From: a virus
Taxonomy: Duplodnaviria > Heunggongvirae > Uroviricota > Caudoviricetes
Virus record (IMG/VR): IMGVR_UViG_2671180849_000023
Strand: one strand, 5' to 3'
DNA: 8,248 nt
The notes under the pieces were generated by a model. It had not been told where the DNA came from. It saw only the letters and a program-made list of their open reading frames with translations, and made no database searches. Both the position numbers and the translations under genes were made by a program. Below are positions 379-1,636 of this stretch, in pieces. Within the stretch, counting starts at the first letter, position 1; each line of letters starts with the position of its first letter.

Positions 379-404
379 TGTAGTGGTCAAGTAATATTGG
401 CCAC
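379..404. repeat. IS left terminal inverted repeat
   Basis: tgtagtggtcaagtaatattggccac; matches the reverse complement of 1611..1636 at 20 of 26 positions, including the terminal 8 bp and the internal TTGGCCAC. Confidence 0.7.
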
Positions 405-1298
405 GGTTTTACAGTAAAAATGGTATCTGTTCTCTGACTCTTCCGGCGTCAGCCCACCGTTATAATGGTGAGGTCTGACGCTGTTGTAGTAGTTCAATAT
501 GTAATCATTAATTTGCTGCCGGGCCTCGTCCTTGCCTGCGTAACCATTCGTTGGCACCCATTCTGTTTTCAGACTGCGGAAGAAGCGTTCCATGGGGCTG
601 TTATCCCAGCAGTTTCCCCGCCGACTGACGCTTTGATTTATTCTGCAACGCCAGAGAAGTTGTTGATATTTAAGGCCTGTATACTGGCTTCCCTGGTCGC
701 TATGGAACACGACATCCCGGGGTTGGCCACGCGTCTCATAGGCCATCCGCAGGGCACTGCTTATCAGTGCGGTATCGGCATGCGCTGACAGACTCCAGCC
801 GATAACCCTGCGGGCAAAAAGATCCATAACAACCGCCAGATAGCACCAGCGATTTCCTGCCCAGAGATACGTAATATCTCCACACCATACCCGGTCTGGC
901 TCCGGTACTGCGAACTGACGCTCAAGCAGATTCGGCAGGCTGGTATGCTCCTGACGGGCATTTTTATACTGATGTTTTCCGGGCTGACAACTGCTCAGGT
1001 TCAGATATTTCATCAGACGTCCGGCACGGTAACGGCTCATCGGGACGCCGTTTTGAGTCAGCATTTCAGCCAGAGTGCGCGCGCCCGCAGAGCCCCGACT
1101 TTGGTTCCACGCCCGGCGTATTTCGCTGCACAACCTGACTCGTGCCGGATTAACCGTATCGCGTCGTTTTCGCCAGTACCGGTAACTGCTGCGGTGTATT
1201 TCCAGAGCAGAACACAGGCTGACAACCGTGTGGCTGTCACTTAGTCTGGCGGCTATCGTGAACCGTTCAGCGAGTCGGACATTAAGAGCGCGGTAGCC
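387..1298 (-). CDS. IS3-family transposase OrfB frame (DDE integrase-like catalytic domain), expected to be made as an OrfAB fusion by -1 frameshifting
   Basis: I translated the -1 frame by hand from the slippery site (1298) down to the track ORF start (1133) and found no stop: [56 protein letters not shown], continuing into the 248-aa track ORF (…[34 protein letters not shown]…HSDQGSQY…[12 protein letters not shown]…). Stop at 387..389. Confidence 0.8.
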
Positions 1299-1564
1299 TT
1301 TTTTAATATCGTATTTTGTTCCTCCAGACGGCGAACTTGCTTTTCCAGCTCGCGGATACGTTGCTGGTCTGGAGTAATGGGTGTGGCAGAGGGCGTAATA
1401 CCCTGGCGCTCTCGCCTGAGCTGGCGTACCCAGCTCTCAAGCGTGGTTGAACCGACATTCATCGCTTCACTGGCCTGTCGATATGAGTAGCCCTTATCAA
1501 CAATCAGCTGTGCACATTCCAGCCTGAACTCAGGGGTGAAGGTTCGTTTGGTTTTCTTGTTCAT
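1253..1564 (-). CDS. IS3-family transposase OrfA (helix-turn-helix DNA-binding and leucine-zipper part)
   Basis: ATG at 1564..1562 preceded by AGGTGA Shine-Dalgarno; stop TAG at 1255..1253. Protein [30 protein letters not shown]…[18 protein letters not shown] is typical IS3/IS911 OrfA. The track ORF begins at an upstream GTG (1600); ATG 1564 is the more likely start. Confidence 0.85.
1298..1304 (-). other. Programmed -1 ribosomal frameshift heptamer A-AAA-AAG in the orfA/orfB overlap
   Basis: Minus-strand sequence ATA TTA AAA AAG GCT in the OrfA frame (…I L K K A…). Slipping one base back enters the OrfB frame, which is open from here. This is the canonical IS3-family frameshift motif. Confidence 0.65.
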
Positions 1565-1610
1565 TAAGTCACCTGTTTTGTGTTGTGGTGAGAATATCAC
1601 CTTTCATCAG

Positions 1611-1636
1611 GTGGCCAAATTTAGTGTGCCACTACA
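1611..1636. repeat. IS right terminal inverted repeat
   Basis: Reverse complement is tgtagtggcacactaaatttggccac; pairs with 379..404. Confidence 0.7.

Follow-up and report, generated by a model that had tools for sequence, protein, structure and literature searches.

Insertion sequences (IS) of the IS3 family are recognised by a length of about 1.2-1.55 kb, imperfect terminal repeats of the type 5'-TG...CA-3', an orfA/orfB overlap with a -1 shift and an A6G-type slippery site, together with a DDE (rve) domain in OrfB, a helix-turn-helix in OrfA, and a target duplication of 3-4 bp at simple insertions. They move by a copy-out/paste-in route that passes through a circle. IS-mediated inversions are common in Escherichia coli and Shigella. 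Recombinant IS copies that have no duplication, prophages truncated by an IS, inversions between IS copies and chimeric contigs are all well known, and nothing at the locus described here departs from them. This locus lies in an 8,248-nucleotide stretch of DNA catalogued as the IMG/VR virus record IMGVR_UViG_2671180849_000023, referred to below as the window. In it, an intact IS3-family element stands between the first codons of ycdU, preceded by a remnant of the acyltransferase gene ymdE, and the truncated prophage baseplate gene ymfQ', and is flanked by no target duplication.

The two flanks of this copy have very probably been exchanged through the identical 1258-bp body of two resident copies of the element, the target duplication being absent because each flank belongs to a different copy. 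The balance then tilts, by no great amount, towards an exchange that is not physical, the junction being an in-silico join and thus an assembly chimera in a draft genome. The left flank is the left half of a simple insertion in ycdU with the 3-bp duplication ACA. The right flank begins with codon 8 of ymfQ and is the right-hand half of the copy situated between a truncated ypjA and the truncated prophage next to ssrA; the contig would have been carried through the collapsed repeat and would have left it into the flank of the wrong copy. The original prediction, made from the window's letters, had treated the element as the signature of an IS-mediated deletion or inter-IS recombination that removed the rest of the prophage. 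Its view that the missing duplication reflects a secondary event through the IS has held, inter-IS recombination being among the options, but the deletion mechanism has not.

Origin of the two flanks

The ends of the element at 379 and 1636 are confirmed by identical copies that occur elsewhere as independent simple insertions, each with its own 3-bp duplication: ACA at ycdU in strain 602687 and an NCTC strain, and CTC in a LuxR-family gene. With the ends fixed exactly, the window copy is bordered by ...gatatACA on the left and TCCGCC on the right, ACA against TCC, and the lack of a 3-4 bp direct repeat that was noted originally is confirmed. Over its 1258 bp this copy is 100% identical to the ycdU copies and to the ypjA'/ymfQ' copy, in all cases examined.

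On the left, the locus order is pga-dgcT-IS3-ymdE-ycdU, and the 378-nt flank is present in 2627 of the 5426 complete E. coli genomes that served as the sample. Strain EC11 has the empty site, gatataca/tttatgc (a slash marks each junction), and 602687, CD45 and the NCTC strain have the filled one, ...ACA/IS/ACAtttatgc, which is a simple insertion with a perfect duplication. The acyltransferase gene taken originally for the left neighbour is indeed present as a remnant, but it ends 54 nt upstream of the element, and the element was inserted 57 nt into ycdU. The ycdU start codon at position 323 reads ATA in the window and in the three closest complete genomes and ATG in EC11, where it overlaps the stop of the ymdE remnant; this position is the only difference across the 378-nt flank.

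On the right, comparison with the uninterrupted gene in strain NWU_1 shows that ymfQ' is without its first 7 codons, a truncation that had been recognised from the sequence and placed about 10 codons in. The same IS/TCCGCC junction is found in 602687, CD45 and PS1Thumoskin9 as well as in nine further long contigs, and at every such ymfQ' junction the IS is bordered on its opposite side by what is left of the autotransporter gene ypjA, a 441-nt stump (...ttcacac/IS). The last four nucleotides of the IS (TACA, 1633-1636) equal the four that precede the junction in the uninterrupted ymfQ of NWU_1 (GATGATTACA/TCCG), and the ymfQ reading frame is therefore kept from Tyr-8. This match could be due to chance (1/256), to insertion beside a sequence resembling an IS end, or to microhomology in an older deletion; the ycdU target also contains TACA.

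Each half-junction occurs in three of the 5426 complete genomes, 602687, CD45 and PS1Thumoskin9, the same three for both and always at separate loci. A second copy with the reciprocal flanks, for which a search had been proposed, accordingly exists in related genomes. The hybrid combination ymdE-IS-ymfQ' was found in none of the 5426, no case of the two flanks adjacent without the IS occurs among them, and the exact left-junction pattern had no match in species-representative genomes. The flanks are found on opposite strands in each of the three genomes, 1.77 Mb (602687), 2.02 Mb (PS1Thumoskin9) and 2.11 Mb (CD45) apart, so the window junction is of the inversion type. The parental IS copies are inverted relative to each other and sit on either side of the replication terminus; the corresponding K-12 sites, at 1.096 and 2.755 Mb, are 1.66 Mb apart and enclose dif at 1.591 Mb. 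The point of crossover is unmappable by single-nucleotide differences, the window, ycdU and ypjA'/ymfQ' copies being identical.

The ypjA'-IS-ymfQ' junction, in turn, is of the deletion type, both flanks running in the same direction along the ypjA-ssrA interval, and the truncation of the prophage is an older, separate event at this junction that is common to the relatives. The uninterrupted ymfQ, whose upstream neighbours had been proposed as a check, has baseplate J/gp47, gp46, V and tape-measure genes in front of it, all missing in the window. The claim that the window junction itself removed the rest of the prophage is thus not borne out. As ypjA'/IS is common, occurring in 197 of the complete genomes with the exact fusion protein on more than 600 contigs, and IS/ymfQ' is rare, at three genomes, the copy anchored in ypjA is old and variable on its right side, and its right flank was probably replaced later. 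On the right of ypjA'/IS a CP4-57-like island usually contributes a truncated GTPase gene, as in E. coli M8. On the ypjA side the duplication is unreadable, the K-12 ypjA allele being too divergent at the junction.

Other arrangements of the same modules have been observed. In NWU_1 the uninterrupted ymfQ lies next to ssrA, and the e14-like prophage borders at its far end on the yggR region and not on ypjA, which suggests another large rearrangement involving the prophage module adjacent to ssrA. Further copies of the IS or of its ISEc31-labelled relative without target duplications occur in O121 RM8352, 7_14_50A and 503025, where they sit between truncated genes (terminase-small'/IS/tail-tip', prohead-protease'/IS/tail-tip' and VasL'/IS/hypothetical'), and internal prophage deletions beside this IS seem to recur.

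Probable assembly join or possible chromosomal rearrangement

Across its full 8248 bp the window matches CYDZ01000042.1 (GCA_001284165.2) at 100% identity. This draft contig of 31.7 kb breaks off 119 nt beyond the left edge of the window, 86 nt into a true IS3, which is the next repeat. Features of an assembly chimera that are present here are a fragmented draft, an identical repeat in multiple copies, and misjoins at the locus. Reads shorter than the IS cannot pair the left with the right flank, because the copies are identical over 1258 bp and number four to five per relative. Sibling drafts (CYBL, CYDJ, CYDP, CXZN, CYEK) enter the IS from ymfQ' by 86, 93, 985, 1168 or 1258 nt and then break. 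Several of them contain gaps of 1 N or 11 Ns at senseless joins, such as pin end/N/IS end, and hairpin-like duplications occur around the invertible segment downstream of ymfQ', together with an open reading frame (ORF) that fuses a resolvase to an assembly protein. This is the behaviour of a short-read assembler with scaffolding and gap filling on a multi-copy repeat, and the pipeline has demonstrably produced false adjacencies at this contig end repeatedly. The orientation of the Pin-invertible segment varies among close relatives and between sibling assemblies, and mixed orientation in the cultures probably explains the mosaic, N-gapped scaffolds of the siblings. Partial IS copies beginning at internal positions 469 or 652 were also seen in the sibling drafts, as was a second pin-like locus, about 95-97% identical, which confuses scaffolding.

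Several observations weigh against a chimera. The contig CYDA01000039.1, from a sibling, has exactly the same join, with no Ns and with the invertible segment flipped, and represents an independent read set because the segment is in the opposite orientation. An exit from the IS into ypjA' was seen in none of the siblings. A wrong exit taken at random would not be expected to repeat, and real long-insert pairs or a systematic bias must have guided the join; the sequencing technology and insert size of the source assembly were not found in the literature. The other explanation that deserves serious weight is a real inversion, to which a probability appreciably below one half is given. RecA-type recombination between the identical inverted IS copies at ycdU and ypjA'/ymfQ' would flip the terminus-containing arc of 1.7-2.1 Mb, yielding ymdE-IS-ymfQ' here and ypjA'-IS-ACA-ycdU elsewhere. 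All three complete relatives have the parental copies in inverted orientation and with identical sequence, the window junction is the exact product predicted, each half of the hybrid is identical to one parental junction, and the same N-free join is present in at least two independently assembled sibling isolates. The join is nonetheless confined to contigs of one draft series whose scaffolds are unreliable at this locus, and the hybrid is absent from the complete genomes. Nor did the reciprocal junction turn up on the contigs that were examined for the YpjA'-IS (156 amino acids) and IS-YcdU (327 amino acids) fusion proteins, where only canonical partners or contig breaks were met on 24 contigs each, a set that probably did not include the sibling drafts. 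Relative to the ori-dif axis the inversion would moreover be far from symmetrical, with K-12 coordinates predicting replichores of 2.98 and 1.67 Mb (64:36), an imbalance that is uncommon in natural isolates.

Two further explanations act at the window junction itself, and both are far less credible than an inversion. A deletion there, whether adjacent to the IS or between direct IS repeats, that removed the rest of the prophage would account for the missing duplication and the unrelated flanking genes, and a deletion-type event did truncate the prophage, though at the ypjA'-IS-ymfQ' stage. It is very improbable: the flanks are on opposite strands in all three reference genomes, the 1.66-Mb K-12 interval between them takes in dif and roughly one third of the chromosome and cannot be deleted, and the ymfQ' junction is already present with its ypjA' partner in relatives. 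The designation of the window junction as an IS-mediated deletion is accordingly rejected, its flanks being neither collinear nor separated by a dispensable interval; flank collinearity is found at the older ypjA'-IS-ymfQ' junction. Hardly any probability attaches, likewise, to a new intramolecular transposition, in which an end of the ycdU copy attacked ymfQ, or to an insertion without duplication at a pre-existing ymdE/ymfQ junction. The native TACA before the ymfQ junction could suggest targeting of a sequence resembling an IS end, but the identical IS/TCCGCC with ypjA' in relatives predates the window arrangement, no genome has both flanks adjacent minus the IS, and the IS3-family mechanism does not normally give such products.

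For the interpretation of similar loci, the absence of a target duplication around an IS in a draft contig does not count as evidence for a deletion; both flanks have first to be located on a reference chromosome, and reads have to support the path of the contig through a multi-copy repeat. If the inversion were true, several sibling isolates would belong to a natural E. coli clone that carries an inversion of 1.7-2.1 Mb across the whole terminus region, with dif moved by about 0.67 Mb and replichores of about 64:36, unusually asymmetric for what is tolerated in the wild. This would add a further example of IS-driven rearrangement, of modest interest on account of its replichore asymmetry. An IS, a truncated prophage and a Pin-invertible tail-fibre cassette are well-known kinds of element, and the finding is ordinary under either reading.

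The insertion sequence and its neighbouring genes

Both terminal repeats, an uninterrupted OrfA, an open OrfB frame and the A-AAA-AAG heptamer, on which the original prediction of an intact element relied, are confirmed by the mapped ends, the Pfam and NF033516 matches and the analysis of reading frames (Table 1). The terminal inverted repeats were detected at 378-404 and 1611-1637 as imperfect repeats of 27 nt with 78% complementarity, and the element has termini of the TG..CA type, 5'-TGTAGTGG at its start and CCACTACA-3' at its end. OrfA likely has a putative heptad-type motif. The orfB frame matches PF00665 (rve, 3.3e-27) and NF033516, 'IS3 family transposase', with 302.8 bits against a cut-off of 160, and the predicted OrfAB of 392 amino acids has the same length as WP_085968792.1, the programmed-frameshift transposase that PGAP annotates on identical copies. 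All IS3-family characters that can be read from the element itself are present, and the target duplication is found at identical copies elsewhere, though not at the window copy. The window IS is thus apparently an ordinary and, as judged from its sequence, predicted functional copy of a multi-copy ISEc31-like element of the IS3 family.

The element is common across E. coli, and matches to its ends occur in thousands of genomes and at up to 16-17 places per genome; 602687 has five places that match each IS end. BLAST matches reaching 5-25 nt beyond both ends at unrelated loci raised the possibilities of a longer IS or of a sequence-specific target, both of which were rejected, the flanks of the top-ranked matches showing similarity by chance only. 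An IS30 insertion hot spot lies at 1293-1294, just 3' of the slippery heptamer (in IS orientation ...AAAAAAGGCTAC^CGCGCTC). The ycdU copy of 602687 carries IS30 at exactly this dinucleotide with a 2-bp duplication, AC, TA8571 and 90-9280 have IS30 at the same site in the opposite IS30 orientation, and K-12 has it at the homologous site of a different element, IS911A (IS911A::IS30A). The window copy is uninterrupted there.

From the left inverted repeat (IRL) end an ORF runs outward (1585-1636), with a GTG at 1585 or 1624, and continues through ymfQ'; gene callers take the GTG at 1624, still within the end of the IS, as the start of a hybrid ORF of 190 amino acids. A 17-amino-acid leader from this end is fused in frame to YmfQ in the window and to YcdU at the canonical ycdU copy, and annotators hence call 'complete' hybrid proteins, the 190-amino-acid YmfQ and a YcdU of 327 amino acids. 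For two alternative gene calls, a ymfQ' hybrid of 203 amino acids and a fibre ORF of 170 amino acids, look-ups found no record. That of the 201-amino-acid assembly protein led to the draft contig CYDZ01000042.1.

Beyond ymfQ', the prophage remnant contains a Pin-invertible segment that encodes two alternative fibre C-termini plus assembly genes. The three hypothetical genes between pin and ssrA had no Pfam or PADLOC match and are kept at this position in many E. coli genomes. At the other end of the window, the 107-amino-acid ORF of the ymdE remnant had no Pfam match.

Table 1. Coordinates of the features in the window, in order of position, with the support for each
Feature	Position	Strand	Support or remark
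Acyl carrier protein (ACP) S-malonyltransferase pseudogene, 3' remnant (K-12 ymdE), ORF of 107 amino acids	1-324	plus	PGAP annotation in relatives; K-12 ymdE
ycdU, first 19 codons; left half-site of the insertion	321-378	plus	ACA at 376-378 is one copy of the duplication
IS3-family insertion sequence (ISEc31-like, IS911-related), intact	379-1636	minus	1258 bp; right inverted repeat (IRR) 379-405, IRL 1610-1636
orfB frame (-1), DDE/rve transposase domain	387-1301	minus	open from the frameshift site to the stop at 387
orfA, 103 amino acids, helix-turn-helix	1253-1564	minus	PF01527, 8.8e-13
Slippery heptamer A-AAA-AAG, -1 programmed frameshift giving OrfAB	1298-1304	minus	PGAP 'programmed frameshift' on identical copies
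ymfQ' (Mu Gp48-family baseplate protein)	1637-2196	plus	PF10076, 8.7e-27; right half-site of ypjA'-IS-ymfQ'
Prophage remnant: tail-fibre and assembly genes, Pin-invertible segment, pin	2200-5056		context
Perfect 36-nt inverted repeats bounding the Pin-invertible segment	2468-2503 and 4421-4456		
pin	4502-5056		
Hypothetical gene, 70 amino acids	5255-5467	plus	between pin and ssrA
Hypothetical gene, 114 amino acids	5552-5896	minus	between pin and ssrA
Hypothetical gene, 343 amino acids	5948-6979	minus	between pin and ssrA
ssrA (transfer-messenger RNA)	7189-7551	minus	anchors the right flank at the ssrA locus
smpB	7766-8248	minus	anchors the right flank at the ssrA locus

Comparison with described elements and rearrangements

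The description of the element as IS911-like holds for its organisation. Like IS911 it has overlapping orfA and orfB with a -1 frameshift on A-AAA-AAG, and in both elements the heptamer leads into GGCTACCGCGCTCTT. The ends of both are of the TG..CA type, and about 27 of the first 30 IRL nucleotides agree; a 3-bp target duplication and the IS30 insertion hot spot are also common to the two. The description does not hold for identity: the copy labelled IS911 by PGAP is 1248 bp long against the 1258 bp of the window element and matches it at 61.5% of nucleotides, with 52% amino acid identity in OrfA and 57% in OrfB, and against K-12 IS911A there are just short local matches of 80-88%. By the ISfinder convention, copies of the same IS agree at roughly 90% or more of nucleotides or 95% or more of amino acids, and the name IS911 is excluded for this element. 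It is nearer to ISEc31, a catalogued element that many surveys of E. coli have reported. A copy labelled 'ISEc31 family' by PGAP in 7_14_50A aligns without gaps at 92.6% of nucleotides over 1258 bp, and the PGAP-labelled relatives have the same length, end sequences and gene layout, with a nucleotide divergence of about 7%. The exact protein, WP_085968792.1, is named by PGAP merely 'IS3 family transposase', without the ISEc31 label. On sequence similarity, the window element is probably an ISEc31 isoform.

As a rearrangement, the locus resembles the IS-mediated inversions of E. coli, Shigella, Yersinia and Bordetella in that half-sites of inverted identical copies are joined, and in such inversions neither hybrid copy has a matching duplication because half-sites of two copies are combined. 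It would differ from them in its unusual asymmetry about the ori-dif axis, and a single hybrid junction, ymdE-IS-ymfQ', has been observed here. With repeat-induced chimeric contigs, to which the locus is assigned here with some reserve, it shares the crossing of a 1258-bp repeat present in four to five identical copies, a contig end inside the next repeat, and N-gapped false joins in siblings at the same contig end, but it departs from them in the reappearance of the same N-free join in another, independent sibling assembly.

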